Positions 17,801-41,253 of a stretch of 64,000 nucleotides of DNA are shown here, piece after piece. The notes beneath the pieces are model-generated. The model did not search any database. It saw only the letters and a program-made list of their open reading frames with translations, and was not told the origin of the DNA. Origin of the DNA: Candidatus Poribacteria bacterium (GTDB taxonomy: Bacteria; Poribacteria; WGA-4E; WGA-3G); the NCBI GenBank assembly GCA_965205015.1, contig OZ242029.1, positions 4,384,001 to 4,448,000 on the forward strand, read 5' to 3'. Numbering within the stretch: position 1 is the stretch's first letter; every line of letters starts with the position of its first letter. Both the position numbers and the translations under genes were made by a program.

Positions 17801-19138
17801 ATGGATTGACGTGACATAGGGAGTCGGCAGACCATCTTCCTTGGAAATGATTTCCCAGTTGCGCGTTTTAGGGGAGTAAATCGAAATTCCTGCGACCGTT
17901 GCCGTCCAAATGTTTCCATCGGGATCACGCGTTACATAACGGACATCGTTATCCGCGAGAAAATCGGCTTGTTTGTAAATTGTCCACTCGCCACTTATTT
18001 TATCAAATCGGCTCACACCATCCTCTTTGCTCGCAAACCAGACATCATTGCCTTGTGTCGTAATCCAACTCACATGATTACTCGCCAATCCATCTGCTTT
18101 GGTGTAATGCACCCACGTATTGACAGGCTTAATGAATCGATGTACACCCGCATTGGCAGTTCCAAACCAGACTTGGAATCCATCTGCGCGGACACAGGTA
18201 ATCATATTGCTTTTCAGTAAATCTGTTTTCGTGTATGTTTTGATGAACGTCTGGTCAACTTGGTTGTACTGACTGACACCCTCTTTCTGAGTACCAAACC
18301 AAACGCTGTCATCGTCCACCGCAATCGTAGCGATCTCACTATCTATTAAGCCATCGGATTTCGTATAGTTATTCCAAGAATCGGTATCTCGATGGTAGCG
18401 ACTTACCCCGCCCCTACTGAACCTCGGATCCTCGTCCCATCCATGCGGATCTGGATTTATTTCTCTGTCGGTGCCGACCCAGACGTACTCTGGCTCGACT
18501 GCGATGGTTGTAATGACTTTGCTAACCAAACCATCTTTCCGAGTGCGCACCGCCCAACTGTCAATCGTTTTGTCATAACGATTCAATCCTTCGGATGTCC
18601 CAAACCAGACGTAGTTCCCATCCACCGCAATCGAGGAGACTTGGTCACTGGCTAATCCGTCAATGGTTCGGAAGGTCGTAAAGGTGTCTGTTTGCATATC
18701 GTAGCGACTTACGCCTTCATCTGTGGCGAACCAGACCCATTGTCCATCCACCGCAACGGCATTTACCATATCGTTCGATAACCCGTCTTCCATTGTATAG
18801 TGGGACCACTTATCCTGCTGGCGGTCCCAGCGAGAGACCCCCCGCGCCGTCGCAATCCATATATTATCTAAGTCTGCAGCAATACAATTAACTTCGTTGC
18901 TAACGAGTGTCCGCTCCACGGGCCATGTCTTTTCAGACACCGTATCTGTTTTGGAACCATCATAGGGAAGTCCAGATTGCGGATCGGTGGTTACCAATGG
19001 ACCGCACCCAACACTCATAAAGAAGGAGACCAATAATAAGACACATGCCATTGAAGCTGCGCACACAGGTCGGCATTTGCGTTCAGTAATCCACTGTTGG
19101 GAATCGGAGTTCCCTCCTACATCTGTTTGTTTCATCAT
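14876..19138 (-). CDS. large multi-beta-propeller lipoprotein (Reg_prop-like repeats, no kinase domain)
   Basis: Dozens of repeats T.EDGL.SN.V..IAVDG..VWFGT..G.SRYD; lipobox-like FFMSVGC; ATG 19138 follows a GGGAGA RBS. Confidence 0.8.
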   Translation of the reverse strand: MMKQTDVGGNSDSQQWITERKCRPVCAASMACVLLLVSFFMSVGCGPLVTTDPQSGLPYDGSKTDTVSEKTWPVERTLVSNEVNCIAADLDNIWIATARGVSRWDRQQDKWSHYTMEDGLSNDMVNAVAVDGQWVWFATDEGVSRYDMQTDTFTTFRTIDGLASDQVSSIAVDGNYVWFGTSEGLNRYDKTIDSWAVRTRKDGLVSKVITTIAVEPEYVWVGTDREINPDPHGWDEDPRFSRGGVSRYHRDTDSWNNYTKSDGLIDSEIATIAVDDDSVWFGTQKEGVSQYNQVDQTFIKTYTKTDLLKSNMITCVRADGFQVWFGTANAGVHRFIKPVNTWVHYTKADGLASNHVSWITTQGNDVWFASKEDGVSRFDKISGEWTIYKQADFLADNDVRYVTRDPDGNIWTATVAGISIYSPKTRNWEIISKEDGLPTPYVTSIHISHQPNSSQQSAVSDQQEGVGVSGTALPTAESRQPKAIWIGSDRGLGTRAYLDEEWTFHVPSRTQTQGEAFVTSVDTGTVSQDHRVWVGTSFGPAVYDTTSQEWTQLTFPDTPKNPLILSVLAHDEKVWFGGAEGVWQYAIADKQMHRVADGLPNPYVNVLLATEQTLWAGTHRGVAKYDKTRQRWIPLSFNDQLPSPNVTALAFQDGVLWIGTPRGLGSYTIASDSWNSLSNVPYNIRDILCDADGTLWLATDTGLVEYDTQSGREALHQSRPVREPFLETKISHIQFDGDYIWFTNWRSSPNGSIVRFHRPTATWRRFTRLDILQSTQKRSMTFIRWTYVDTDAVWFTTDYGVLRYDKIADTWQHFTTEDGLSTNDVNRIDISEQSVWVIPMIGLELNHYSKATGTWEIVEQKDHREIERVKALGVDGPNVWFSSGRGLTRYNEITGEWKDFGPRDGLAGRGGEWITVDNDFIWVARSEWDRGSNRPLSRYDKKTKKWTTFSTNDVLAANTIRRIISTENDIWILYRPWDDAGVTRYDRRTKEWTTIRSGRGTLELAADDDYLWLAAPNDGLRRFHFASGTWARFRDIKGLLHNHVGEYGLAVDEDYVWVGTLRGLSRYDKRKESWTPLTALPTLVGRTIRTVDADERFVWVGTDEGMSRYDKVLGIWKNYQQEGGSENIETHGGHWHRHRRKKKDCLSDDVVSSIMVDDQYVWVGTRDGANRFDKIALRWDQYKTEHGLPANNVTSVSSDVDSIWVGTNSGIGKYPRTADDRNAWITYTSGTEIQPSAVSKEFAESLVTDQIWCITASKKHVWVGTRRGVSQYDIGRDIWKTITVEDGLASDEVSCIVIDGDNVWFGSDRGVTLYNEKTEVWADYTTEDGLASNKVTSIGVDGAEVWIGTYNAGVSRFDQFTNSWTTYTREDGLAHNGILSMAVDSPYVWFGTYRGLSRFDKRTEIWTTFTESYGPEDILR
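17689..17799. repeat. heptamer-armed palindromic repeat inserted in frame
   Basis: Arms (GGCTGTC)n and (GCTGACY)n around a GGTATCAGGAACCGCT core (minus strand); relatives at 10792-10880, 19374-19450, 1441-1470, 20660-20688, 44755-44797. Confidence 0.7.
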
Positions 19139-19200
19139 TTCCACCGTCTCCCTTTCACCCAAGTGTGAGTCTCACAATTTCAAGATTGTTTTCGCCAGTT

Positions 19201-27622: not shown

Positions 27623-27726
27623 TGTTCAGAAATTGAACGATGGGAAACAATTCATGGGTAAACCGTCCCAAAATTCTATTGTAGCGGCAGTTTTGCGCTT
27701 GAATGACCTTTGGCACAAAAATTGCT
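27623..27726 (+). promoter_or_regulatory. sigma54 promoter with upstream palindromic enhancer
   Basis: TGTTCA-GAAAT-TGAACG (27623-39) and TGGCAC-AAAAA-TTGCT (27711-26). Confidence 0.7.
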
Positions 27727-28005
27727 TAAATAGCCTTAAGGCTCGTTTATTGATTTGGAAATTTGTGTAAAGTGAATTGATTCTATTGTATTTTCTTTAG
27801 AAGGGAGAATTTAAAGATGAAAAACCTTACCTGCTGCACTGACTGTATCATAAAACAGGTCGGATAATATAATGTGTCCTACTGGACAGCGAAGGTTTGC
27901 TCGGCGTTTATTATCTTTTCAGCACCTAAGACCAATTCATTGATCTTACCGGCTTCCCTAAGAAAATACTAATTCTTGCAAGTTGTAGGTTAGCGAACAA
28001 TTATA

Positions 28006-29160: not shown

Positions 29161-30408
29161 ATGCGAATACCGATGCTTTTTCGTTTCTCACTCTACGGTT
29201 TCCTCAAAAATCAACGCTACTACGACCCTTTCCTGATTCTGGCATTTCTTGAAAAGGGACTGTCATTCTTTCAGATTGGGATCCTCATCGGATTTCGGGA
29301 GGTCTGTACCAACCTATTTGAAATCCCCTCTGGTGCAGTCGCAGACCTGTATGGTCGTCGCAGTTCGATGATCTTCTCCTTCTCTGCCTACATCGCCTCC
29401 TTCGTGACGTTCGCGCTGAGCAACTCACTCTTTCTACTGTTTTTGGGGATGTTCTTCTTCGGCTTAGGTGATGCCTTTCGGAGCGGAACACATAAGGCGA
29501 TGATTTTCGACTGGGTTGACTTTGAGGGGCGATCGGATGAGAAAACAAAAATTTACGGATTCACCCGTTCATGGTCACAGATGGGGTCCGCCATTTCCGT
29601 GCTGATTGCCGGTGGATTGGTTTTCTACCGCGGCAACTTCACGGACATCTTCTGGTTCTCAATCATCCCCTACGCTCTCAACATCGTCAACTTCCTTGGC
29701 TATCCCAAACGCCTTGACGGTGAGCGAAAAAACGAATTTTCACTCAGAGCCGTTGCCATCCTTCTCGGAGCCGCTTTGAAACAGTCTGTCCAATTCCGGC
29801 CACTGCGACGGCTCGTTTTTGAGTCAATGGGATTTGAGGGTATGTACAAAGCCTGTAAAGACTACTTGCAACCCATTCTTCAACAGACCGCAATAGCATT
29901 GCCGTTGTTTTTAGCCTTTGATACAGAAAAGCGGTCAGCGGTGCTGGTAGCCCTCGTATACTTTGTGTTGTACTTCCTCTCTTCCCTTGCCGCCCGCAAT
30001 TCTCACCAAATCGCTGATTGGCGTGGAAGTGATGATGGCGCAGCGCGTTTTATGTGGTGGATCAACGGTGCGATATTCGTCCTTTTAGTCCCAACATTGT
30101 GGTTCAACTGGTATCCGGCAATGATCGCCCTTTTTGTTGGATTGGCGATCCTCCAGAATTTCTGGCGACCGGTGCTCATCGCTCGGTTCAACACGAATTC
30201 TGCACCAGATATGAGCGCGACAGTGCTCTCCATCGAAGCACAGTCTCAATCGGTAGCAACGATTGTGCTCGCGCCTTTACTCGGCTGGACAGTCGATCTT
30301 GTTGATGGATTCTGGACAGTAGGTGTCACAGGTCTGGTCATTGCGATAGTGATTATCCTCACAGGATTGCCCCTGAACGTTCAGAAAGAACAAGAGATAC
30401 ACTCTTAA
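29161..30408 (+). CDS. MFS transporter
   Basis: About 12 TM segments, motif A-like GAVADLYGRR. Confidence 0.9.
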   Translation: MRIPMLFRFSLYGFLKNQRYYDPFLILAFLEKGLSFFQIGILIGFREVCTNLFEIPSGAVADLYGRRSSMIFSFSAYIASFVTFALSNSLFLLFLGMFFFGLGDAFRSGTHKAMIFDWVDFEGRSDEKTKIYGFTRSWSQMGSAISVLIAGGLVFYRGNFTDIFWFSIIPYALNIVNFLGYPKRLDGERKNEFSLRAVAILLGAALKQSVQFRPLRRLVFESMGFEGMYKACKDYLQPILQQTAIALPLFLAFDTEKRSAVLVALVYFVLYFLSSLAARNSHQIADWRGSDDGAARFMWWINGAIFVLLVPTLWFNWYPAMIALFVGLAILQNFWRPVLIARFNTNSAPDMSATVLSIEAQSQSVATIVLAPLLGWTVDLVDGFWTVGVTGLVIAIVIILTGLPLNVQKEQEIHS

Positions 30409-30455
30409 CTTAAATTATAGTGTCAGAACTTTTGTGGATACATTACAAACGCTGC

Positions 30456-30560
30456 TGTTCAGAAACTGAACAGTGAAAAACACTTCTTCGCGCAATATTG
30501 ACCAAAAACTCTCTCCTAAAGGTATTTTTCGGTTGAATTCACTTTGGCACGAAAATTGCC
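30456..30560 (+). promoter_or_regulatory. sigma54 promoter with upstream palindromic enhancer
   Basis: TGTTCA-GAAAC-TGAACA (30456-72) and TGGCAC-GAAAA-TTGCC (30545-60). Confidence 0.75.
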
Positions 30561-30576
30561 CATTATGTTCACACAA

Positions 30577-30672
30577 CTGCGAACCAACTGGGATAGCCTC
30601 CTCCTTGGAAAAATTTGGAGCGGTGCAATAGGCTTTCCCATATTTTGACTGTTGCATTGCTCCCTCTATCAA
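30577..30672 (+). ncRNA. conserved structured leader/sRNA, copy 1
   Basis: Similar to 34875-34970; helices 30589-99/30630-40 and 30617-31/30649-63. Confidence 0.6.
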
Positions 30673-30875
30673 CCCAAAAATCGTCTTTAGAACTTGCAAA
30701 ATCACTGAGAGGTGCTAAAATGTTATTATGGAAGAAGAAACCGGAGATAACGCGTCAAGACGGTTGGCTCAAGGTCGATTATCAAGATTGTAGAGTAAAT
30801 TCCGTTCCTCAATGTCCGATTTATACAGGAACATAGCGAAACCCAACAACCTAAACACGAGGATGGGAGAAACAC

Positions 30876-33698
30876 ATGCGTATTATTACAATAGTCATAT
30901 TTTTTCTTCTATTACTTAGTGGGTGTGGCATAAAATCAGTCCAACCACCGGCACCTGTCACAGCAGAAATCGTTAGAAAAGCCGACTGGGAGGTAGAATT
31001 CAGGGATGTCTTCTTCCGCGATGCAAAGCACGGTTGGGTCATTGGAGAGAAAGGGACAATCCTCTACACAGAAGACGGTGGCAAAAATTGGAAAACGCAG
31101 AAGAGCGACACTGAAGCACGTCTGAACAAGATGCAGTTCATAGATGAAAAGCGCGGTTGGATTGTCGGAAACGAAGGAACTTTCTTACGAACAGGAAACG
31201 GCGGGAAAAAATGGCAGAAACGGGTTGTCAGGGACGGGAGCATGAGTCTGATCAGCCTTCACTTCTTGGACGAACAACGCGGCTGGATAACTGGGGAAGG
31301 GGGTGCGCTCTATTATACGGCAGACGGCGGAGAATCGTGGGACTTCCGTGCCAGCGGTGTGGGTGAAGCACTCCTCGACATCCACTTTGTTAGCGAAAAT
31401 GAAGGCTGGTTGATCGCACAACTCGGCACAACATTGCACACGACAGACGGCGGGAAAACATGGGATTATAAATCGGTAGGACCTCAGGACGGTCTGCTTA
31501 ATATACAGTTCGATTCTGACCAGAAAACGGGCTGGGCTGTCGGAATTGCGTCTGCTGTGCTCTCAACGACAGACGGCGGAAAAACGTGGACCCGTGGGGA
31601 ACCCGGCATTGAAGGCTCCCACGCCATCTATGATCTCTGCTTTACAGATACGAAAAAAGGATGGTTAGTCTCACAAGTTGGGGGCGTGATACACACACAG
31701 GACGGTGGACAGACATGGACGGTTCAAGAGACAGGTACACGTAGTGATCTGATGGCTGTGCATTCTCCTGACGCGAAACATGTTTGGGCAGTCGGCAGCT
31801 ACGGAACAATGCTGCATTCTACCGATGGTGGGAAAATGTGGATAATTGATTCCGAAAGTAATGCCGAACCTTTAGCAGGTGTGGAGATGGCGGATAGCGG
31901 ACGCGGCTGGGCTGTTGGGCGTCGCGGGGCAATCTTCCGCACGGAAAATGAAGGACGCTCTTGGGAGCAACAGGACAGTGGTCTCTCTGTCGGTTTGAAT
32001 AAGGTGACCGCTGTGGACGAAGAACAGGCGTGGGCAATCGGTGATTCCGGCTACATTTTGCACACCAAAGACGGAGAGACATGGGAGGTCCAAAAAGGCT
32101 ATGACTGGATCGGTCTGCACGATGTCCAGTTTCTAAACAGTCAGCGGGGTTGGGCTGTTGGGGATATGGGGGGTATCTTTTATACCAACAACGGTGGTGA
32201 AAATTGGATTGAGCAACGGGGTTATATTTTTGAGCTCTTAAAAGGTCTCTGCTTTGTTTCACCGAATGAGGGATGGACGATCGGTTGGCCCGGCAAAATC
32301 CTCCACACTGTCGATGGTGGGAAAACATGGGAACCCCAAGAGAGTGGGACATTTAACGAACTCTACTCGATCTATTTCATAGATACCGAACTCGGTTGGA
32401 TCTCTGGACAATACGGACTCATCCTTCATACTGCTGATGGGGGTAAAACGTGGAACTCCCAGTATACTCGCACACAGGCGAATCTCAATAAAGTCTTTTT
32501 CGCTTCTCCCACAGTAGGAATAGCCGTTGGTGACGAAGGAACGCTCCTCCTCACACAGGACGGCGGGAAGACATGGACACGGGAGGACAGTGGAACGGAC
32601 AAAAATCTTAGCGATATCAGTGTCACGGAGGATAAAATATTTGCTGTCGGCGAAGACGGTATCGCTCTCGCCTATACGGTTCCGTCAATATCAAAATATA
32701 CACCACGCAAACGATTCTTTGAGGAGACTGAAACCGAGCTGCCGAAGGTAGAGGTTGGATGGGAAATTTTACGCAACGACGGACCCTTCCGCATAATGGG
32801 AGTAGAGTCCGGCATAAAACCAGCGGATATTTCCTTTATCAACGCTATTGAAGGATGGGCAGTCGGTAATTCCGGTACGATGCTCCACACCTTAGACGGC
32901 GGGAACACGTGGAAAAGCGTTGAATCGCCTGCGGACACGCCTCTAATTGCCGTGCATTTTGTCTCTTCAGAAATCGGTTGGGTACTCACCCAAGACGCGA
33001 GTTTCTTATCCACAACCGACGGCGGCAAAACATGGCAGATTCTGAACGAAACCACTAAGCCCGTGATAAGTACCTACGACGAAGAAAGGCGTCCTATAGA
33101 AGAACCGTGTGAACTTTATACGGCACATTTTCAGGGTTTCGGTGAAGGGTGGGTTGTTGGTAAAGAAGGCGTTATTCTACACAACAAGGACGGAAATACA
33201 ATCTGGAGACATCAGGAAAACGAGACTTCAGCATCCTACCGCGACATCCAGATGGTGGAGGAGCATTACGGTTGGGCTGTTGGGTCGTGGGGAAAGGTTC
33301 TTTGGACGAACAACCAAGGCAATACATGGCATCTACAGACAACCAACACAGGATATGACCTGTACGGTCTATCTTTCCTGAATCGCGTAGAAGGGTGGAC
33401 TGTTGGAAGAGACGGCATCGTTCTCCGAACATCAGACGGTGGTTTGGCGTGGTCTGCAGTCAACACAGGGATAAGCACACACCTCTATGATGTCTCCTTC
33501 ATCAACAAAATGGAAGGCTGGATTGTTGGAGAAGGTGGACTCATCCTGCATACCAGGGACCGTGGAGAAACATGGGTAATCGAGGAATCCGGCACCAGCG
33601 AAGATTTGTACCACGTTGAGCATGTCAAAGGACTTGGTATCGTTGTGCTCGGTGCGAACGGCACTATCCTCAAGCGAAAGATAGAGACGCAATCTTAG
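30876..33698 (+). CDS. YCF48/BNR(Asp-box)-repeat beta-propeller lipoprotein
   Basis: Lipobox LLSGC; about 20 repeats of GW.VG..G.ILHT.DGG.TW. Confidence 0.9.
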   Translation: MRIITIVIFFLLLLSGCGIKSVQPPAPVTAEIVRKADWEVEFRDVFFRDAKHGWVIGEKGTILYTEDGGKNWKTQKSDTEARLNKMQFIDEKRGWIVGNEGTFLRTGNGGKKWQKRVVRDGSMSLISLHFLDEQRGWITGEGGALYYTADGGESWDFRASGVGEALLDIHFVSENEGWLIAQLGTTLHTTDGGKTWDYKSVGPQDGLLNIQFDSDQKTGWAVGIASAVLSTTDGGKTWTRGEPGIEGSHAIYDLCFTDTKKGWLVSQVGGVIHTQDGGQTWTVQETGTRSDLMAVHSPDAKHVWAVGSYGTMLHSTDGGKMWIIDSESNAEPLAGVEMADSGRGWAVGRRGAIFRTENEGRSWEQQDSGLSVGLNKVTAVDEEQAWAIGDSGYILHTKDGETWEVQKGYDWIGLHDVQFLNSQRGWAVGDMGGIFYTNNGGENWIEQRGYIFELLKGLCFVSPNEGWTIGWPGKILHTVDGGKTWEPQESGTFNELYSIYFIDTELGWISGQYGLILHTADGGKTWNSQYTRTQANLNKVFFASPTVGIAVGDEGTLLLTQDGGKTWTREDSGTDKNLSDISVTEDKIFAVGEDGIALAYTVPSISKYTPRKRFFEETETELPKVEVGWEILRNDGPFRIMGVESGIKPADISFINAIEGWAVGNSGTMLHTLDGGNTWKSVESPADTPLIAVHFVSSEIGWVLTQDASFLSTTDGGKTWQILNETTKPVISTYDEERRPIEEPCELYTAHFQGFGEGWVVGKEGVILHNKDGNTIWRHQENETSASYRDIQMVEEHYGWAVGSWGKVLWTNNQGNTWHLQTTNTGYDLYGLSFLNRVEGWTVGRDGIVLRTSDGGLAWSAVNTGISTHLYDVSFINKMEGWIVGEGGLILHTRDRGETWVIEESGTSEDLYHVEHVKGLGIVVLGANGTILKRKIETQS

Positions 33699-33722
33699 AT
33701 TCGATCAGGAGAAGTTTTATTG

Positions 33723-34676
33723 ATGAAACGAATATTATTTCTATTGATGGTACTATTCAACAGTAGTCTGTTGATAATCAACGTTTGGGGCAGCGGTAGG
33801 GTTTCCTTCACCTCCGATAGGGCAGGAAACCTTGACATTTACATCATAAATATAAATGGTAAGAATCTCACCAACTTAACCAATCATCCATCAGACGATT
33901 TCTCACCGACCTGGTCTCCAGACGGTCGCGCTTTTGCCTATGTCTCAAACAGAGACGGGAATCCAGAGATTTACGTAATGGATGTGGATACGAAAGAATC
34001 CCGAAGAATCACAAACCATCGAGCGACTGATGTGGATCCCGCATGGGCCCCGGATGGCAAGTGGATCGCATTCGCATCCAACCAAGCGCGCGACCATGCC
34101 GCCGACACTGACATCTACAGAATGGACGTGAATGGCAAGAAGGTTCAGAGACTCACAAACAAAGGTGGACACAATTCAACGCCCGCATGGTCCCCGGACG
34201 GAGAGTGGATCGCGTTTCGTTCCACGCAAGATGGCATCGGCGGTATCCACGTCATGAACGCTGATGGTGAAAAACAGAGAGCACTCACACAGGTTTCCGC
34301 AACAGGTCCCACTTGGGCTTCCAACGGAAAACAGATTTATTTTTCCAGCGAGAAGCTGGGCGGTGTAAAAATGCCGGCACTGTTCGCAGTGGATGTTGAT
34401 GGAGAAAATCCGAAAAAATTGACAGACGCGGGACACGCTTGTGAAGAACCTGATGGATCCCCCGACGGTCAGTGGATCGCCTATGTATCCGTTCAAGACG
34501 GGAACAAAGACATCTATCTTATCCGTGCGGCGCGGGGTGGTCTCCGAAAATTGACCCAAGATGCGGGACTGGAATTTTCTCCCGCTTGGGTCCCATCTGC
34601 GTTTAGTGTTTCACCGAACGCGAACACACAGATAATGCTCTGGGGAATACTCAAGCGAACAACAAAGAAAAAATAA
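33723..34676 (+). CDS. TolB-like PD40-repeat secreted protein with C-terminal tag
   Basis: Repeated P.WSPDG..IAF.S; C-terminus SVSPNANTQIMLWGILK. Confidence 0.85.
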   Translation: MKRILFLLMVLFNSSLLIINVWGSGRVSFTSDRAGNLDIYIININGKNLTNLTNHPSDDFSPTWSPDGRAFAYVSNRDGNPEIYVMDVDTKESRRITNHRATDVDPAWAPDGKWIAFASNQARDHAADTDIYRMDVNGKKVQRLTNKGGHNSTPAWSPDGEWIAFRSTQDGIGGIHVMNADGEKQRALTQVSATGPTWASNGKQIYFSSEKLGGVKMPALFAVDVDGENPKKLTDAGHACEEPDGSPDGQWIAYVSVQDGNKDIYLIRAARGGLRKLTQDAGLEFSPAWVPSAFSVSPNANTQIMLWGILKRTTKKK

Positions 34677-34753
34677 TTCACTGTAAACACCCTACAGAAC
34701 CCAAAATGTAGACTGGGTTTCCTACCTTAGTACCTTCCTTAGCTTTGAAAAAT

Positions 34754-34858
34754 TGTCCATAAATTGAACACTAAAGAACATTCTATCGGGTAGAATCACG
34801 AGAAAACTACCTTTAAACCCAATTTTTCACCCGAATTGCCTTTGGCATGAAAATTGCT
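34754..34858 (+). promoter_or_regulatory. sigma54 promoter with upstream palindromic enhancer
   Basis: TGTCCA-TAAAT-TGAACA (34754-70) and TGGCAT-GAAAA-TTGCT (34843-58). Confidence 0.75.
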
Positions 34859-34874
34859 CTTATATTATCAAACG

Positions 34875-34970
34875 CTGCGTAAACTTGGGAGAGCCTGCCT
34901 CCTTGGAAATATACGGAGCGATGCAATAGGCTTTCCTATATCTCAATTGCTGCATCGCTCCTCCTATCAA
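34875..34970 (+). ncRNA. conserved structured leader/sRNA, copy 2
   Basis: Helices 34886-96/34928-38 and 34915-25/34951-61; CCTCCTT at 34898-34904. Confidence 0.6.
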
Positions 34971-35000
34971 TCGGAAACACTGTGTGTAAGGAGAACAATC

Positions 35001-35393
35001 ATGAACAGATGGAGATGCTTGCTCTTTATACTTGCTTGTTTATCACAGATGGGGTGTGCTGCGCTTCTCACGGAGCAGGAATACATCCTCATCGATCAGG
35101 ATATAGAAGAAAAGATGACTTTCCATGGGGAAATTTATTCGCTGCCAGAGAGAGCGGACATTCGGAAAATTGTGCTTCTCGGTTCTGGAAAAATCCGAAA
35201 CATTGAACTTCACGTGCGTGATAAGAGAAACCGATGGACACCCGCCAAGAAAGTACCGGGCGGAATTCAGTTTCCGTATGAAATCCTACTTATTGCTAAA
35301 ACAGACGCTATCAAAATTATAAAACACTCAATGACTGGAGCCGGTCGCATTGAGAAGGTGCAATTTTACACAATTGCCGATAAAGGAGATTAA
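35001..35393 (+). CDS. small lipoprotein, hypothetical
   Basis: RBS AAGGAG, ATG 35001, lipobox-like LSQMGC. Confidence 0.65.
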   Translation: MNRWRCLLFILACLSQMGCAALLTEQEYILIDQDIEEKMTFHGEIYSLPERADIRKIVLLGSGKIRNIELHVRDKRNRWTPAKKVPGGIQFPYEILLIAKTDAIKIIKHSMTGAGRIEKVQFYTIADKGD

Positions 35394-35395
35394 AA

Positions 35396-36286
35396 ATGAT
35401 ATACCGGCAACTCTTTACATGCCTCCTTCTGCTAACATTGATCGCGCGCAATGGCACAGCATTTCCACCCTCTTCACCCGCGGGTGGAAACTATTTAGCC
35501 CTTGATGGTGTGGACGATTACGCCGTTTTAGACTTTAAAACCTTTGATGTACTCTTACCGAAAGGCACGAATGAGTTCACTGTTGAAGCGTGGGTATACC
35601 CAACGACCCCACCTAATAAGAATACAACAGCAATGATTCTCAGTCAACAGGTACAGATGCGCGTCGTAAGCTATGAGTACGAGGGATACGAGAAGCTGAA
35701 AAAGGCTATTGATTGGCGGAGGGGAGACCTACTTCTGATAGTCGATGGCTACGTTCCGTTCGCAGGAAAAACTGGCAAGGTACCTTTTTTCCCAATCACG
35801 ATTTCTCCGAACCAATGGTATCACATCGTTTATCAGGCGAAAAGAAAACAGACAACGACTATTGTCAATAGTCTTGCACAGACATTGCCGCAAGGAACAA
35901 TTATCGCACATGATCTTTCAACACTCTGGCATCCAAGAGATTTTACACTCGGAGGGTTTGGAAAGAAAGTTGACGTACGCAATGTGGCGAATGCCTTTTT
36001 GGGATCCTTTACAGGATATATTGATGAGGTTCGCATCTCGACCATCGCCCGCTACGATGTCGCTAAAAAGGCTTTCGCACCGCACAGAAGGTTCAAGACT
36101 GACGCAAAAACGGTCGCCTTGTGGCACTTTGATGAACCCGGTGGCATACGAAAATTCTCAGATGCGTCGGGCAACGCATATCATCTGATAGGGAAAGGTG
36201 GCGCAAAAACCGGCATCCCGCTCGCCGTCGAAGCACAAGGAAAACTGGCAACTACATGGGGCGCAATGAAGCAGACGCAGCCATAG
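35396..36286 (+). CDS. secreted LamG-like jelly-roll protein with C-terminal tag
   Basis: LALDGVDDY, FTVEAWVYP, GYIDEVRIS, ALWHFDE; ends AVEAQGKLATTWGAMK. Confidence 0.85.
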   Translation: MIYRQLFTCLLLLTLIARNGTAFPPSSPAGGNYLALDGVDDYAVLDFKTFDVLLPKGTNEFTVEAWVYPTTPPNKNTTAMILSQQVQMRVVSYEYEGYEKLKKAIDWRRGDLLLIVDGYVPFAGKTGKVPFFPITISPNQWYHIVYQAKRKQTTTIVNSLAQTLPQGTIIAHDLSTLWHPRDFTLGGFGKKVDVRNVANAFLGSFTGYIDEVRISTIARYDVAKKAFAPHRRFKTDAKTVALWHFDEPGGIRKFSDASGNAYHLIGKGGAKTGIPLAVEAQGKLATTWGAMKQTQP

Positions 36287-36414
36287 ATTGCAATCCGTCG
36301 GATCGGAAAGTCGGTCCGTTATTGAGACGGGTTCCCCTCTGAGGCATAATGAATTGCGCTACTACGAACCGCTACGCTGAAAATCGAATCGTGACGATTC
36401 ATGGAGCCATTCTG

Positions 36415-38607
36415 ATGATCCGGCACTCCAGCATACTCTTACTAACGCTTCTATCTATTTCGGTGAGTCAACTCGATGCCGCGGAACCGCTGCTCACTAT
36501 CGGCAAGCCGCCACTCGATGACATCGCATACACACCCGATGGGCGTTTTTTGGCAACGTTGTCCATTTCATATTGGATTGAATTGTTAGATGCAGAGACC
36601 TTCGTTCCGGTGCATCACATTGACACGGTTGAGGGAGAACATCTCCGGTTTTCACCCGATGGCGCGCAATTGGCAATTTTCGGAGATAGAGCAAATATTC
36701 AACTCTGGGACGTCGACCCTCCTCGACTGCGGGCTACGATTCCCGTGAAAACGGTGCACGTCACATTTTCACCCGACGGCAAGTATCTCGCCTACACCGT
36801 TCGTGATACTGTCTACCTATGGCACCTCAGAGAAAAGCAAGTGGTTATGGAGTTGACCAATGGAGCGCCGATCACGGCAATCGAATTTCACCCAAACCTC
36901 CCGATTCTTGTCAGTGGTCATCCAGAAGATCCCGTGACATTCTGGAATGTGGACACCGGGCAGATTCAACGACGATTCCCTACGGTTTTACGACATCCGA
37001 AAAAACTCCGGTTCAGTCCTAATGGCGCATTTCTCGGTGTTCTATTGGAACACACAGATGTTTATCTCTTTGAAACCGCCACAGGTGCCTTACGAGAATA
37101 TTTCCATTCTGCTCTTGACTTCGGTTTCTCACCGGATGGCACCTACTTTTTCCTCGGCACAAGCGGCGCGATGCTCCAGCGACTCCACATCCCGACGGGG
37201 GGATGGGATAGCCAGTCCGTTGTTGATAAGCCAACGGAGTTCCGTGGAATGAGACGGGTTAAACGCCTCACTTTCCACCCCAATGGCTCCGAGTTTGCAA
37301 GTCAAATCGATTCTTACCGTATTAGCGTTTGGGACGTTAAGAAATTGTCTCGCCTAAAAACGCTTTCCGGCTGGGAGCAGACTTATACACAGGCTGCTTA
37401 TCTACCGAAGATTAATCGCTTAGTTACGGGCTTCAACACCAACATACTCCATTTCTGGGACACCCGCACCGGTAATCTGTTGAAAACGGTTGAGTTTCAC
37501 TCAAGGCTTTATCAAGTCGTCCCGAGTCCGGACGGACGGTCGGTTGCCCTTGATGTTGAGGCAACAAATCAGATCTGGGACGCGGCGTTAATGGAGCCGC
37601 GTCACGTCTTTCAAATTCGAGGCTATTTAGGAACACAGGCTGTGAATTTTTCGCCTTCTGGGAAGTACCTCGCCTCAAATACCTACCGCGGCACGTTTAT
37701 CTGGGAAGTGGACACCGGAAGACAGGTGAATTTGATTGACACTGACTGGTCAGATTTCTCACTCTTGCTGTTTACACCTGATGAACGGCAGATTGTATTG
37801 ATTCCACCTAACGATGAAGACCTCCAGCCGGCAGGCGATTTCATCGGGTTATGGGACATTCAAACAGGAGAGCGGGTTCGCAGCGTCGACGCGATCGGCC
37901 CACTCCTGTTCGGACGAGACAATTTCTTGCAAGTGCGTGATAGCCAAGAGGCTTTGGAGATTTTTGATATGGCGAGCGACAGGGAACTCAGCCAGATTCC
38001 GAAGCCGATACCGTTTCAACTGATACGCCGCTTTTCCGACATCCAATTCCATCCTACCGGGCGCATGGTTGCCGTTCGTTGGCCTGTGCGGACAACACCT
38101 GATAAACAACGATTTTATGATACCCAAACAGGACAGCGCTTAGCGGTTATGCCAGGGGCAGATTTACGGTTTGCAGGGAAAGGTGAATTTCTGCTCCTCC
38201 ACAACGAAAGTAGCAGTCAATTGGAAATTTACCGAACCCGGGATATAGTGAACGTTCCGGAATCGGCCCGTGTTGAGCCGCAGGCGCGACAGTTGGCACA
38301 ATGGGGTGCTATCAAAAGGAACGCGCTGCTACAAAACTTCCCTAACCCCTTCAATCCAGAAACATGGATTCCGTTCCGTCTTGCAAATGAGAGTCACGTT
38401 ACGATCCAGATTCATAATTTCGCAGGTCAGCTGGTGCGTCGCTTATCCCCTGGAACAATGCCTGCGGGTAACTATTCTTCACAGGCGCAAGCCGTCTATT
38501 GGGATGGACGCAATCAAGTGGGAGAGCCCGTGAGCAGTGGTGTCTATCTCTACACCATCAACGCAGGCAACTTCTCCGCAACCCGTAAAATGCTCATTTG
38601 GAAGTGA
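36415..38607 (+). CDS. secreted WD40-repeat protein with FlgD/T9SS-type C-terminal domain
   Basis: FSPDG/..WD repeats; LLQNFPNPFNPETWIPF...YWDGRN..GEPVSSGVYLY. Confidence 0.85.
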   Translation: MIRHSSILLLTLLSISVSQLDAAEPLLTIGKPPLDDIAYTPDGRFLATLSISYWIELLDAETFVPVHHIDTVEGEHLRFSPDGAQLAIFGDRANIQLWDVDPPRLRATIPVKTVHVTFSPDGKYLAYTVRDTVYLWHLREKQVVMELTNGAPITAIEFHPNLPILVSGHPEDPVTFWNVDTGQIQRRFPTVLRHPKKLRFSPNGAFLGVLLEHTDVYLFETATGALREYFHSALDFGFSPDGTYFFLGTSGAMLQRLHIPTGGWDSQSVVDKPTEFRGMRRVKRLTFHPNGSEFASQIDSYRISVWDVKKLSRLKTLSGWEQTYTQAAYLPKINRLVTGFNTNILHFWDTRTGNLLKTVEFHSRLYQVVPSPDGRSVALDVEATNQIWDAALMEPRHVFQIRGYLGTQAVNFSPSGKYLASNTYRGTFIWEVDTGRQVNLIDTDWSDFSLLLFTPDERQIVLIPPNDEDLQPAGDFIGLWDIQTGERVRSVDAIGPLLFGRDNFLQVRDSQEALEIFDMASDRELSQIPKPIPFQLIRRFSDIQFHPTGRMVAVRWPVRTTPDKQRFYDTQTGQRLAVMPGADLRFAGKGEFLLLHNESSSQLEIYRTRDIVNVPESARVEPQARQLAQWGAIKRNALLQNFPNPFNPETWIPFRLANESHVTIQIHNFAGQLVRRLSPGTMPAGNYSSQAQAVYWDGRNQVGEPVSSGVYLYTINAGNFSATRKMLIWK

Positions 38608-38689: not shown

Positions 38690-38803
38690 TGCACCATTTT
38701 GTGCTATTCGGTCCAAGGTATGCCCTATTTTGTGCAGTTCTTCCTGGAATATCGCTAAGAATCCCTCCCAGTGTTGTATTTTCAGATTGGCACGGAATTT
38801 GCC
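38690..38803 (+). promoter_or_regulatory. sigma54 promoter with tandem NtrC-like upstream sites
   Basis: TGCACCATTTTGTGCT (38690) and TGCCCTATTTTGTGCA (38721), 31 bp apart; TGGCAC-GGAAT-TTGCC (38788-803). Confidence 0.7.
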
Positions 38804-38913: not shown

Positions 38914-41253
38914 ATGAAAACGCGCATCGTCCTTTCAAAACGAAGCTTGCGAGCTTATATTGCAGTCATCAGTGTTATTTGCATCTCCTGCTGTGCTTTT
39001 GCGATGGAACCGATCGGCACAGTTGGGCAACCCTTTCCAGAGAAGCACGCGTTTCTCTCCAATGAAGCGATTGTACGTGTGACCCCAGCACGCATTCAAA
39101 TTATTGATACGAATACCGGCGCGCTTATAGATGAATTCGCCGAACGCGAGTATTGGAGCGACGTCGTACTGAGTCCAGATGCCTCACATTTAGCAATTTT
39201 TACACATGCGCATGATGGAAAGAGTGCTATTGTCAGTATCTGGGATGTCAATGCGCGCGAGCAAATCAGCGAATGGAAAGTCGAATTCCGCATCTATGAT
39301 GTCGCGGCATTTAGTCCAACGGAGCCACTGTTCGCAATCCCTTCTGAGGATGGGATTCATCTCTGGAATTGGAAAACAGGCGAGTCCCTTGGAAAGATGG
39401 TAGGCACACGGCGTCCATTGAAATCGTGTTATTTTTTCGACGGCGGCAGCAGTTGTGTAGGAGATCCGCGTGATCGCACCGCGATTTTTAGTCCCGATGG
39501 TCACTATTTGATCGTCGCCTCCATGCGACCTGACATTGAACTCTGGAATGTTGAGACGCGCCAGTTAGAAGGACACTTTGAGGGACACACAGGAAACTGG
39601 GTTGAAAAGGTCGCTATCAGTCCGGATGGAAGATATATCGCATCGTTCGAGAGGGGACCAACTTCCGTCCACCTGTGGGATGTGGCATCAAGGCAGTTAC
39701 GCTGGAAGGCACAAAGCGGCATTGGCAGGATTTCAGATGTGGTCTTCAGTCCGGATAGTCAACACTTGTATGTTGCGAACGAGACGGCTGGACTGACTTG
39801 GATTGATCCCGGACCCTGGCAAGGGTGGGATGACCGGGTCCGCGTCTGGAACGTCAAATCGGGGCAATACATTGACACGTTTGGCAGTGAGTTCCGCGAA
39901 TTGGAAGAAATAACGCTATCACCGAACGGGAAAATTGCGCTCTTGCACTATTGGGATGCTGTCGTGATGTGGGATATCGAGAAAAAGCGACCCCTGAACG
40001 TGTGGACTGATTTCCTCAGAGATCGGTTCTACAATGTGGTGAAATTGAGTCCTGATGGACGGACCATAGGTGCCACCTCCCGATATTTTATTAAGACATG
40101 GGATGTCGCGTCCCAGCAAATGAAAGGCATCATTTCTGCAGAAAACACCAGGTTTGAAGGGCTCGCAATCTCCCCAGAGGGTCGGAAACTCGCTGTCCAC
40201 AGGGACCGGTGGATGGAGGTCCGCAATCTTCAGACGGGTAACATTGAACTCCAATTCCCACAGCATATTGGGGAGCCTGAAGAAATTGTCTTCAGTACCT
40301 CTGGAAGGTGGATTGCGACAGTGGGGATCTGGCAGTCTCTCTCGATTTTGGACACCCAGAATCCGGAGAAACTCCAGAAACTTACATCAAAAAATGGACC
40401 TGTACCGCTCGATACGCATCAGATCGTCTTTAGTGAAAATGACGCGTATTTCGCTGCTTCCGGCAGAACGGAAGACGATCAAGATTCGATTCAATTATGG
40501 AAACGCGAGGGCGACACTTTCATCTTTCAATATACATGGCAGGTCCCAAAACTGCTTTATAGCTCAATTCCAACGCTCGCTTTTACCTCTCACACAGATG
40601 GTTCAACGGTGTTAGCCGCATCCGAAGAATTGGAACTCCACATCTGGAAACTCTTGTCAGACGGTCCCCAGCTTCTAACAACCTTGGAGGGAGGCTATCA
40701 GCCAGTGCACTTTAGTCCAGATGGTCGCTATCTCTTTGCCCGACGAGACGGTTCCACCCAGGTCTGGGACTGGCAGACAGAAACACCGCTTGAGCATCCG
40801 TCTATTCCAATATATTTTGACATCAGTCGAGATGGATCCGTTCTGCTTTCGGAGACAGTCAGCGGTCAAATCCGCATCTGGGATGGAAGCGCGCTGCTAC
40901 CTTCGCAACCGGTTGCCGTTGAGCCGGGGGATAAACAGATTGTTATACTGGGAGAAGTGAAACGAAATCAACTCCTCCAAAACTTCCCGAACCCTTTCAA
41001 CCCGGAAACCTGGATCCCGTTCCGACTCGCAAATGAAAGCCACGTTACGATCCACATTTATAACGCCACGGGTCAGTTGGTGCGTCGTTTATCCGCGGGG
41101 ACACTGCCTGCAGGCGACTATTTCTCACAGGCACAAGCCGTCTATTGGGATGGACGCAATCAGACCGGCGAACCCGTGAGTAGTGGCGTCTATCTCTACA
41201 CCATCAACGCAGGCAACTTCTCCGCAACCCGCAAAATGCTCATTCGGAAATGA
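38914..41253 (+). CDS. secreted WD40-repeat protein with FlgD/T9SS-type C-terminal domain
   Basis: WD40 repeats; same CTD as the preceding gene; GGAGG RBS. Confidence 0.85.
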   Translation: MKTRIVLSKRSLRAYIAVISVICISCCAFAMEPIGTVGQPFPEKHAFLSNEAIVRVTPARIQIIDTNTGALIDEFAEREYWSDVVLSPDASHLAIFTHAHDGKSAIVSIWDVNAREQISEWKVEFRIYDVAAFSPTEPLFAIPSEDGIHLWNWKTGESLGKMVGTRRPLKSCYFFDGGSSCVGDPRDRTAIFSPDGHYLIVASMRPDIELWNVETRQLEGHFEGHTGNWVEKVAISPDGRYIASFERGPTSVHLWDVASRQLRWKAQSGIGRISDVVFSPDSQHLYVANETAGLTWIDPGPWQGWDDRVRVWNVKSGQYIDTFGSEFRELEEITLSPNGKIALLHYWDAVVMWDIEKKRPLNVWTDFLRDRFYNVVKLSPDGRTIGATSRYFIKTWDVASQQMKGIISAENTRFEGLAISPEGRKLAVHRDRWMEVRNLQTGNIELQFPQHIGEPEEIVFSTSGRWIATVGIWQSLSILDTQNPEKLQKLTSKNGPVPLDTHQIVFSENDAYFAASGRTEDDQDSIQLWKREGDTFIFQYTWQVPKLLYSSIPTLAFTSHTDGSTVLAASEELELHIWKLLSDGPQLLTTLEGGYQPVHFSPDGRYLFARRDGSTQVWDWQTETPLEHPSIPIYFDISRDGSVLLSETVSGQIRIWDGSALLPSQPVAVEPGDKQIVILGEVKRNQLLQNFPNPFNPETWIPFRLANESHVTIHIYNATGQLVRRLSAGTLPAGDYFSQAQAVYWDGRNQTGEPVSSGVYLYTINAGNFSATRKMLIRK

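Follow-up and report, generated by a model that had tools for sequence, protein, structure and literature searches.

The question raised by this locus is what kind of element recurs directly behind two sigma-54 promoters in a 64-kb stretch of a Candidatus Poribacteria genome (hereafter the window, meaning the whole stretch analysed). Members of the Poribacteria live in sponges as abundant, uncultured symbionts, and to our knowledge almost nothing is known about their gene regulation. An earlier note on this DNA had described two diverged copies of a structured RNA and had proposed that it is either a riboswitch-like translational control element or an anti-Shine-Dalgarno (anti-SD) small RNA tied to surface-protein genes. 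Here, the element is classed as a new cis-regulatory RNA motif, an orphan whose occurrence is clade-restricted and covers part of the phylum Poribacteria. The full reading, i.e., a cis-acting pseudoknot leader that gates translation through an anti-SD mimic, is given a probability of about 45%.

Two leader copies behind sigma-54 promoters

Both copies were located at the sites described before, with agreeing coordinates, and the features of the two cassettes are as follows:

30456-30472, no strand assigned: palindromic candidate upstream activator site (UAS) TGTTCAGAAACTGAACA, 88-89 nt 5' of promoter 1 (repeat family D16)
30545-30559, + strand: sigma-54 promoter 1, TGGCACGAAAATTGC, exact match (TGGCAC-N5-TTGC)
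30561-30677, + strand: leader RNA copy 1, covariance model match (106.3 bits, E 5e-23)
30589-30599/30630-30640, + strand: helix P1 of copy 1, one U-U mismatch
30600-30610, + strand: anti-SD mimic of copy 1
30617-30627/30653-30663, + strand: helix P2 of copy 1, two G-U pairs
30664-30675, + strand: tail of copy 1, CUCUAUCAACCC
34754-34769, no strand assigned: candidate UAS TGTCCATAAATTGAAC, 89 nt 5' of promoter 2
34843-34857, + strand: sigma-54 promoter 2, TGGCATGAAAATTGC, exact match (TGGCAT-N5-TTGC)
34858-34975, + strand: leader RNA copy 2, covariance model match (147.6 bits, E 7e-33)
34886-34896/34928-34938, + strand: helix P1 of copy 2
34898-34908, + strand: anti-SD mimic of copy 2
34915-34925/34951-34961, + strand: helix P2 of copy 2
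34962-34975, + strand: tail of copy 2

The copies share 80% identity over 80 nt while their flanks have diverged (repeat family D9), and each of them has the 3' strand of P1 within the P2 loop. P1 begins 30 nt (copy 1) and 29 nt (copy 2) past the GC of the promoter, in line with the spacing given in the earlier note. The stretch CCTCCTTGGAA, noted previously as an invariant anti-SD after the 5' strand of P1, is indeed identical in both copies; it has two exact matches in the 64-kb window against 0.46 expected at one mismatch or fewer. Promoters 1 and 2 are two of only four exact TGGCAY-N5-TTGC matches in the window. Moreover, the UAS motif TGTYCA-N5-TGAAC occurs at only three sites in the 64 kb (0.18 expected), each 88-89 nt 5' of a perfect sigma-54 promoter, and it is also present 5' of orthologous promoters in other genomes (11/20).

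A covariance model of the element, searched in 150 sampled Poribacteria genomes, detected it in 54 of them (about a third; sponge symbionts) with 87 matches, namely one match in 24 genomes, two in 27 and three in 3. This recurrence and the model E values place the window copies far beyond chance. The family comprises 89 distinct copies of approximately 95-105 nt, and TGGCAY-N5-TTGC is found directly 5' of 76 of them, so that the position behind sigma-54 promoters claimed for the window holds for the family as well. Copies always lie on the sense strand in 5' leader position, with a recognisable same-strand gene 3' of 81/89 and a short spacing to the next start codon in most cases, and those sharing a genome are clustered 0.6-7 kb apart. 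This is not the pattern of a plain dispersed repeat in random orientation away from promoters, nor that of a MITE, for which many copies at varied sites and orientations would be expected.

A duplicated promoter-leader cassette without any RNA function, serving as a DNA-level protein site or small mobile repeat, was also considered, as the arms are inverted repeats, the cassette was duplicated within the locus together with its promoter, and 23 of the 89 copies look decayed (at least two non-pairs in a helix, owing to either decay or misalignment). This reading is already disfavoured and appears very improbable: only one to three copies exist per genome, always at the same locus and in the same orientation, the core is conserved far above the flanking leader, distant copies retain the fold without a sigma-54 promoter, and the helices show the compensatory changes and the excess of G-U over A-C described below.

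Two crossing helices and comparison with known RNAs

Covariation was scored on a structure-blind MAFFT alignment, and the shuffle controls ignore sequence relatedness. In P1, pairing is kept in 91.6% of cells; two-sided changes affect 13 cells as compared to 4.7 ± 2.0 in shuffles (0/500), and the covariation score is 0.162 as compared to 0.045-0.084 when the partner strand was slid. For P2, the corresponding values are 94.8% paired cells, 29 cells changed on both sides versus 6.9 ± 2.2 (0/500), and a score of 0.163 versus 0.018-0.098. Parsimony on a tree counted eight two-sided canonical switches in each helix alongside 39 pair-breaking changes per helix. G-U outnumbers A-C in both P1 (98:31) and P2 (39:21), in agreement with a sense-strand RNA. 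Since P1 was absent from the search model, its support is independent of that model. The compensatory changes in both helices bear out the earlier description of a structured RNA with two crossing helices, and the helix order 5'a-5'b-3'a-3'b, with covariation behind each helix, is that of an H-type pseudoknot. ViennaRNA and RNAalifold, neither of which can model a pseudoknot, return P2 only. The helices measure 10-11 bp, with energies of -15 to -20 kcal/mol. The loop lengths of 17-18, 1-3 and 11-13 nt look sterically sufficient for P1 and P2 to form together in one molecule. The helices, nearly invariant in sequence, and the linker are strongly conserved, and variation is found in the 5' 25 nt and in loop L3; the helices are followed by a conserved CUAUCAA tail and, in the alignment rows, an AUC(N)CAAU-like motif stands 3' of both 3' strands. 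Such near-invariance is compatible with a switch and equally with recognition by a protein or with tertiary contacts.

The Rfam scan suggested in the earlier note leaves the novelty of the element standing. At gathering score, none of the 4227 models of Rfam 15 matched in the 64-kb window or in 147.5 kb from 19 copy-bearing loci; at E<=10, five weak matches in 30400-35200 did not fall on a copy, and at E<=1 the only match on 16 divergent loci was mir-7578, with 29.7 bits against a cut-off of 60. A Poribacteria-1 RNA motif is reportedly among the motifs of Weinberg et al. from 2017. It has the phylum in common with the element, and the word 'Poribacteria' was not found in the main text of PMC5737381. 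Should Poribacteria-1 be part of Rfam 15, the element described here is a different one, since scans of 27 or more copies gave no family match at any of the thresholds used.

Pseudoknots are known from several riboswitch classes, and SAM-II (RF00521) and preQ1-II (RF01054) resemble the element in their two crossing 5' UTR helices near the ribosome-binding site and their conserved loop nucleotides. However, the helices described here are much longer, the SD lies outside the pseudoknot, ligand-related genes are not found nearby and Rfam gives no match. The leader of E. coli rpsO (the S15 operator; Rfam S15 leader), whose effect on translation initiation is mediated by a factor that binds it, can likewise adopt a pseudoknot or a hairpin fold; its pseudoknot includes the SD and AUG, and the ribosomal protein encoded by the gene is itself the regulator, whereas here the SD is outside. 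S15-type autoregulation is unlikely for the element because its products are exported.

Downstream genes and the leader transcript

The genes behind the two window copies are:

30721-30837, + strand: STAS-domain gene remnant of 38 codons, intact (114 aa) after the same copy type in other genomes
30876-33698, + strand: 940-aa lipoprotein with BNR/Ycf48-like beta-propellers
33720-34676, + strand: 318-aa PD40 (TolB-like) beta-propeller protein
34988-34993, + strand: Shine-Dalgarno AAGGAG of the 130-aa lipoprotein gene, complementary to leader CUCCUU; ATG at 35001
35001-35393, + strand: 130-aa lipoprotein, predicted galactose-binding-like (CBM32 / F5-8 type C / DOC) beta-sandwich
35396-36286, + strand: LamG-domain protein
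36349-38607, + strand: WD40 protein with FlgD-Ig/T9SS C-terminal sorting domain

The L079 homologue of the STAS remnant matches PF01740 (E 4e-9). The gene for the 130-aa lipoprotein is the commonest one behind the element (55/89 copies); the protein matched no Pfam or NCBIfam family, and its assignment comes from a predicted structure (pLDDT 85.2) with Foldseek E values of 1e-4 to 5e-3 and a TM of about 0.5. The LamG and WD40/T9SS genes are probably on the same transcript as the lipoprotein gene, judging from short intergenic gaps only. The proposed link to surface-protein genes is supported in that exported or surface protein genes follow the copies.

Sigma-54-driven small RNA families are known, namely Qrr, GlmY/GlmZ and CrcZ, and the earlier note had offered an anti-SD sRNA as its alternative. 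In such a case, a trans-acting RNA, transcribed as such or processed from the leader, would mask the ribosome-binding sites of other mRNAs with its CCUCC. Vibrio Qrr1-5, enterobacterial GlmY/GlmZ and Pseudomonas CrcZ resemble the element in that a genome has several homologous copies, each with a sigma-54 -24/-12 promoter and an activator site 5' of it, and in that the folded RNA presents a conserved single-stranded motif, as the anti-SD stretch would be in the proposed fold; here, the promoter was found for 76/89 copies, and the UAS occurs in the window at three promoters only. For one copy (L056), no gene was recognised within 170 nt. Those RNAs, however, are terminated and free-standing, whereas no terminator-like site was found between either window copy and the start codon, and the element, always in leader position, lies a few dozen nucleotides 5' of a start codon in most copies. 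In addition, metatranscriptome contigs from RNA libraries (four runs, one study) connect the element with the downstream gene, their source being a relative of approximately 95% identity with DNA carry-over possible. These contigs cover 30596-30726, lack 30727-30833 within the STAS remnant, and then continue into the gene. In all four runs the contigs begin at 30596-30602, a weak hint at a possible processing site; contigs of this kind cannot show 5' ends. Because a terminator is lacking and the contigs run into the gene, the element is read as a cis leader, and a trans-acting sRNA is considered improbable.

The anti-SD mimic and the proposed translational gate

The 17-18-nt linker between the helices carries CCUCCUU (61/89 linkers; CCUCC in 68/89), which is identical to the anti-SD tail of the 16S rRNA of an element-bearing genome, ending in ...CACCUCCUUUCU. 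The SD region is conserved in orthologues and lies 25-45 nt 3' of the tail, and according to the alignment rows one subfamily contains a 9-nt perfect complement to its own SD region. Complementarity alone is nonetheless weak evidence, because any CCUCC complements any SD. Nested partition-function folding of 52 leaders, in which the pseudoknot is not representable, gave a mean SD-linker pairing probability of 0.14, with the SD unpaired at 0.37. The linker variants CCACC, CCGCC and CCUUC are not compensated in the SD, although hardly any compensation would be expected of an SD that has to match 16S rRNA as well. Of the anti-SD control claimed previously, the anti-SD stretch, identical with the 16S tail, and its complementarity to AAGGAG stand, while nested folding does not predict masking of the SD with any consistency. 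As regards riboswitch-like control, the element has conserved, covarying helices in a 5' UTR, as in riboswitches, but a terminator was not found and the genes do not point to an obvious ligand.

Following this, we propose that a sigma-54, activator-dependent promoter would transcribe the element as the first part of mRNAs that appear to encode exported glycan-binding-type proteins (CBM32-like lipoprotein, STAS and BNR propeller, PD40, LamG, WD40/T9SS). The element may act in cis on translation initiation, its mimic competing with the ribosome for AAGGAG, and pseudoknot formation could set whether the mimic is exposed or held, in response to a ligand, a protein or a physical cue. A post-transcriptional gate would thereby be added to the sigma-54/activator transcription gate, and the element probably does add a second, translation-level control to these genes.

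Alternatively, the pseudoknot might serve as an aptamer to which a small molecule, a second messenger or an RNA-binding protein binds, with CCUCC and the invariant helices as binding core rather than anti-SD, and translation, RNA stability or Rho access as possible output. The pattern of conserved and variable parts, the pseudoknot fold itself, several copies per genome 5' of functionally related genes and the little SD masking in nested folding would agree with this, and the AUC(N)CAAU-like motif could be a two-site protein target. Yet the genes code for exported propeller or lectin-like proteins and not for transporters or pathway enzymes, no candidate ligand or partner protein was identified, and no defined expression platform was found; we hold this alternative to be possible but unlikely. 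Doubtful as well is the more far-reaching version, in which a riboswitch or protein-sensing class peculiar to sponge-symbiotic Poribacteria would read a second signal, e.g., a metabolite or second messenger linked to the host or to biofilm, and form with the sigma-54 activator a two-input AND gate for surface glycan-binding proteins, the rRNA-tail mimic in the pseudoknot loop being the effector.

Orthologous lipoprotein genes in element-free genomes keep the sigma-54 promoter in 15/20 cases with a leader of 45-75 nt, which aligns to the P2 3' strand and tail and carries a 4-5-bp hairpin there. Because these orthologues keep the promoter with a short leader, the element is dispensable and hence regulatory. 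The same observations, together with the start of the element approximately 17 nt from the predicted 5' end, may speak for a constitutive, non-switching structure grown from a small ancestral hairpin, stabilising the mRNA or fixing its translation level. However, 5' protection needs neither two crossing 11-bp helices nor an invariant anti-SD copy and conserved tail, and dozens of species and paralogous copies have retained the structure, with compensatory changes, so that we consider a constitutive role rather unlikely.

Under the preferred reading of a translation-gating leader, a pseudoknot loop that presents the 16S anti-SD tail in exact copy would be a neat design and one that lends itself to testing. 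If the element does sense a ligand, it would represent a new riboswitch class; if not, it is still a well-supported orphan family among bacterial structured RNAs. The motif marks a compact regulon in which sigma-54 promoters are combined with one activator site and a common RNA leader, and whose exported lectin-like and beta-propeller products are of the kind to be expected where the symbiont meets the host matrix. Sister lineages with the same promoter and gene, and without the RNA, provide a natural control.

The leader element and its distribution

The two stretches singled out in the earlier note proved to be as it described them, each lying behind a perfect sigma-54 promoter and each holding two crossing helices, P1 and P2, and both are copies of a leader RNA element of about 100 nt. 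The features concerned are listed here by window position.

30545-30559, + strand, sigma-54 promoter of copy 1 (exact TGGCAY-N5-TTGC)
30561-30677, + strand, copy 1 of the element
30876-33698, + strand, BNR lipoprotein gene
34843-34857, + strand, sigma-54 promoter of copy 2 (exact TGGCAY-N5-TTGC)
34858-34975, + strand, copy 2 of the element
34988-34993, + strand, Shine-Dalgarno sequence (SD) AAGGAG behind copy 2
35001-35393, + strand, gene of a 130-aa lipoprotein

The order of the locus is promoter and RNA, STAS remnant, BNR lipoprotein and PD40, followed by promoter and RNA, lipoprotein, LamG and WD40 with a T9SS sorting domain. The copies have a common block of 80 nt with 80% identity, while their flanks are diverged. 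P1 comprises 11 pairs in each copy, with one U-U mismatch in copy 1, P2 likewise comprises 11 pairs in each, and the 3' strand of P1 lies inside the P2 loop in both; moreover, CCTCCTTGGAA follows the 5' strand of P1 with the same letters in both copies, as had been claimed. Single-sequence folding, a method that cannot represent the crossing P1, returned P2 in all four stretches tested (z-scores -2.3 to -3.0), and the P1 duplexes had energies of -15.4 and -16.5 kcal/mol, the P2 duplexes of -17.5 and -20.1 kcal/mol.

When species-representative genomes were scanned for an exact pattern, 13 matches were obtained, 11 of them titled as Candidatus Poribacteria MAGs; one is an 'uncultured bacterium' contig with both copy types, and one a Pelosinus contig that has nothing in common with the element except the pattern itself. 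Fourteen sequences went into a covariance model whose only helix was P2, P1 never being part of the search model, and the search of relatives suggested by the earlier note found matches in 54 of 150 sampled Poribacteria genomes. Applied to the fetched places, cmsearch yielded 92 matches at E<=0.001, corresponding to 89 distinct sequences, and a second model (R2) derived from the 92 matches gave 87 matches in the identical 54 of 150 genomes: one in 24 genomes, two in 27 and three in 3, with a spacing of 0.6-7 kb between copies in one genome. Ten loci were returned by a metagenome pattern scan, five with the element (seven copies of known types, adding no diversity), two rejected as unrelated GC-rich stretches and three rejected as a single unrelated perfect 26-bp hairpin. 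Such a hairpin, followed by T residues, stands at 567-645 of metagenome-scan locus L106 (same sequence in L111 and L112), its likeness to a P2 arm being due to chance. The element was met only on Poribacteria-type contigs, the model search having covered 150 genomes of the phylum.

The comparison with Rfam proposed in the earlier note matched no family: Rfam 15 gave no match at gathering score in the window or in 147.5 kb of 19 copy-bearing loci, no match at E<=10 falls on either copy, and the sole match on 16 divergent loci was a sub-threshold miRNA hairpin. Since Rfam 15 gave no match, the 'Poribacteria-1' motif named in that note, if among the Rfam 15 families, is an RNA other than the element. 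A literature search for 'Poribacteria-1', or for an RNA motif together with Poribacteria, retrieved nothing; the word 'Poribacteria' is absent from the main text of Weinberg et al. (2017; PMC5737381), and the papers listed for sigma-54 or RpoN in Poribacteria were unrelated. The element is a real and well-delimited structured RNA in the leaders of some Poribacteria, apparently so far undescribed. Its class, the cis-regulatory 5' leader, is familiar; its own are the fold, the mimic of the rRNA tail and the coupling to sigma-54 promoters.

The two crossing helices

In the 14 close sequences P1 and P2 were paired in 97-100%, with hardly any variation. When the 89 distinct copies were aligned by MAFFT, which is blind to structure, 91.6% of cells were paired in P1 and 94.8% in P2. 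Two-sided changes were found in 13 cells of P1 as compared to 4.7 ± 2.0 in shuffled alignments (0 of 500 shuffles reached this value) and in 29 cells of P2 as compared to 6.9 ± 2.2, where the shuffles ignore kinship. The covariation scores were 0.162 for P1 (0.140 shuffled, 0.045-0.084 with slid partners) and 0.163 for P2 (0.124 shuffled, 0.018-0.098 slid), again against shuffles that ignore kinship. The model-fitted alignment gave the same picture, with 13 pairs showing two-sided change as compared to 7.0 ± 1.5. Fitch parsimony on a FastTree tree put the two-sided canonical switches at eight and the pair-breaking changes at 39 in each helix, and the one-sided changes that preserve pairing at 52 in P1 and 28 in P2. 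Breaks are clustered in certain copies: 23 of the 89 are decayed or misaligned, and the other 66 show no more than one non-pair per helix, 42 of these being perfect. Additionally, G-U pairs exceed A-C (98:31 in P1, 39:21 in P2), which identifies the sense strand as the one that folds. P1 and P2 are two crossing helices that may coexist in one molecule.

In an all-against-all G-test with APC on the extended alignment, subfamily signal and alignment shifts prevailed, and no further helices could be derived from it. A hairpin between the 5' strand of P1 (GGGAG) and CUCCU was rejected as a conserved helix, since its G/A variation is compensated in P1 and not here, and since it is absent from RNAalifold; it does appear in single-sequence MFE folds and may be a folding intermediate. 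A small hairpin of tail and SD sequestering the latter, and a mini-hairpin within the linker, were both dismissed as general features, each occurring in some subfamilies only and in shifting registers. A leader peptide AUG-CAA-UAG in P2 was discarded as its reading frame is not conserved.

The linker and its proposed role in translation initiation

The 5' strands of P1 and P2 are joined by a linker of 17-18 nt; 68 of the 89 copies have CCUCC in it, and 61 have CCUCCUU. The 16S rRNA of an element-bearing genome ends in ...CACCUCCUUUCU; as the linker motif equals this tail, the linker is a copy of the anti-SD and complementary to the conserved AAGGAG, which sits 25-45 nt 3' of P2. One subfamily has a 9-nt perfect complement to the SD region, and its linker is also able to fold onto an internal SD-like GGAGAA. 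Because the linker copies the anti-SD and complements the downstream SD, the hypothesis we favour is that the element would control translation initiation in cis: the mimic would compete for the SD, and the pseudoknot would decide if the mimic is exposed. Several observations speak against masking of the SD. In nested partition-function folds of 52 leaders the mean probability of SD-linker pairing was 0.14 and the SD was unpaired at 0.37, and linker variants occur without compensation in the SD. Moreover, any CCUCC matches any SD, which counts against a reading from complementarity. The stem positions, furthermore, are mostly near-invariant across copies, and such helix sequences would be explained equally well as a protein- or ligand-binding core.

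Promoters, genes served and element-free orthologues

TGGCAY-N5-TTGC stands directly before the model start in 76 of 89 copies. The 13 copies without it form two groups, one with palindromic repeats in the promoter's place, the other of distant copies in which P1, P2 and CCUCC are kept and the sequence upstream is unrelated; as these distant copies keep the fold, the RNA is separable from the promoter. Palindromic repeat units (GAATGCC...GGCATTC and CCCC..TTATCAGGGGG types) replace or follow the promoter at 400-500 in each of two loci from other sources (L048 and L061) and downstream of the element in a third (L056).

Within the window, the exact promoter pattern has only four matches, all on the + strand and two of them before the copies. 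The palindrome TGTYCA-N5-TGAAC, a putative activator site, occurs at three places only (0.18 expected), always 88-89 nt upstream of a perfect sigma-54 promoter (27711, 30545 and 34843). Its occurrence only at these promoters points to one activator common to all three, two of them with the RNA; no activator (bEBP) gene was found among the 20 window ORFs scanned with Pfam. Between copy and start codon there is no terminator-like site for either window copy. Metatranscriptome contigs of a relative with about 95% identity (four runs, one study) start at 30596-30602 inside copy 1, cross the leader and enter the BNR gene, reaching 31076-31224. RNA-library contigs thus bridge element and gene, although contigs can neither prove transcript ends nor exclude DNA carry-over; 30400-30595 and most of 31255-35187 are without contig cover, which does not equal silence.

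First downstream gene recognisable by sequence motif, 89 copies
130-aa lipoprotein: 55 copies
Start of STAS-domain gene: 8 copies
PD40: 7 copies
LamG: 5 copies
WD40: 2 copies
BNR: 2 copies
TonB-receptor-like: 2 copies
None recognised: 8 copies

The sigma-54 regulon with which the element is associated encodes exported proteins of lectin-like and propeller type. No Pfam or NCBIfam family matches the 130-aa lipoprotein; its predicted fold is a beta-sandwich (pLDDT 85.2) that most resembles APC10/DOC, CBM32 and F5/8 type C domains, and the Atlas lead agrees. The STAS gene encodes 114 aa if intact and is a 38-codon remnant in the window (30721-30837). The contigs of the close relative lack 30727-30833 (107 nt), most of this remnant, which is a strain difference and not a splice; deletion of the remnant is therefore under way in related strains.

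The lipoprotein family is present in 77 of the 150 genomes, namely 45 of 54 with the element and 32 of 96 without. In twenty orthologous loci from element-free genomes the model matched nothing, even after its filters were switched off (best E 0.71); the sigma-54 promoter is kept in 15 and the activator site in 11 of them. The sigma-54 unit is therefore older, and the element is an optional layer on top of it. The leaders of element-free orthologues, only 45-75 nt long, align with the element-bearing leaders in two places, the promoter and the 3' strand of P2 with its UAUCAA tail, and at the latter a 4-5-bp hairpin is possible. With 66-68% protein identity, some RNA-less orthologues are nearer than certain RNA-bearing ones, which have about 51%; the history of the element may be one gain with repeated loss, or the reverse.

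Several further features were observed in the window. The third sigma-54 promoter (27711-27725, palindrome 27623-27638) has a different leader without the element, followed by a 16-codon Cys-rich micro-ORF with a good SD (27817-27867, MKNLTCCTDC...), small ORFs and an MFS transporter (29161-30408). The fourth (38788-38802), without palindrome or RNA, precedes the second of two tandem paralogous WD40 proteins (36349-38607 and 38914-41253) with FlgD-Ig/Por_Secre_tail C-termini, the 3' ends of which hold a 300-nt repeat with 79% identity (38272-38571, 40918-41217). On the - strand, a 1428-aa ORF (14876-19162) with internal repeats of about 126-nt periodicity throughout probably encodes a large beta-propeller or repeat protein.
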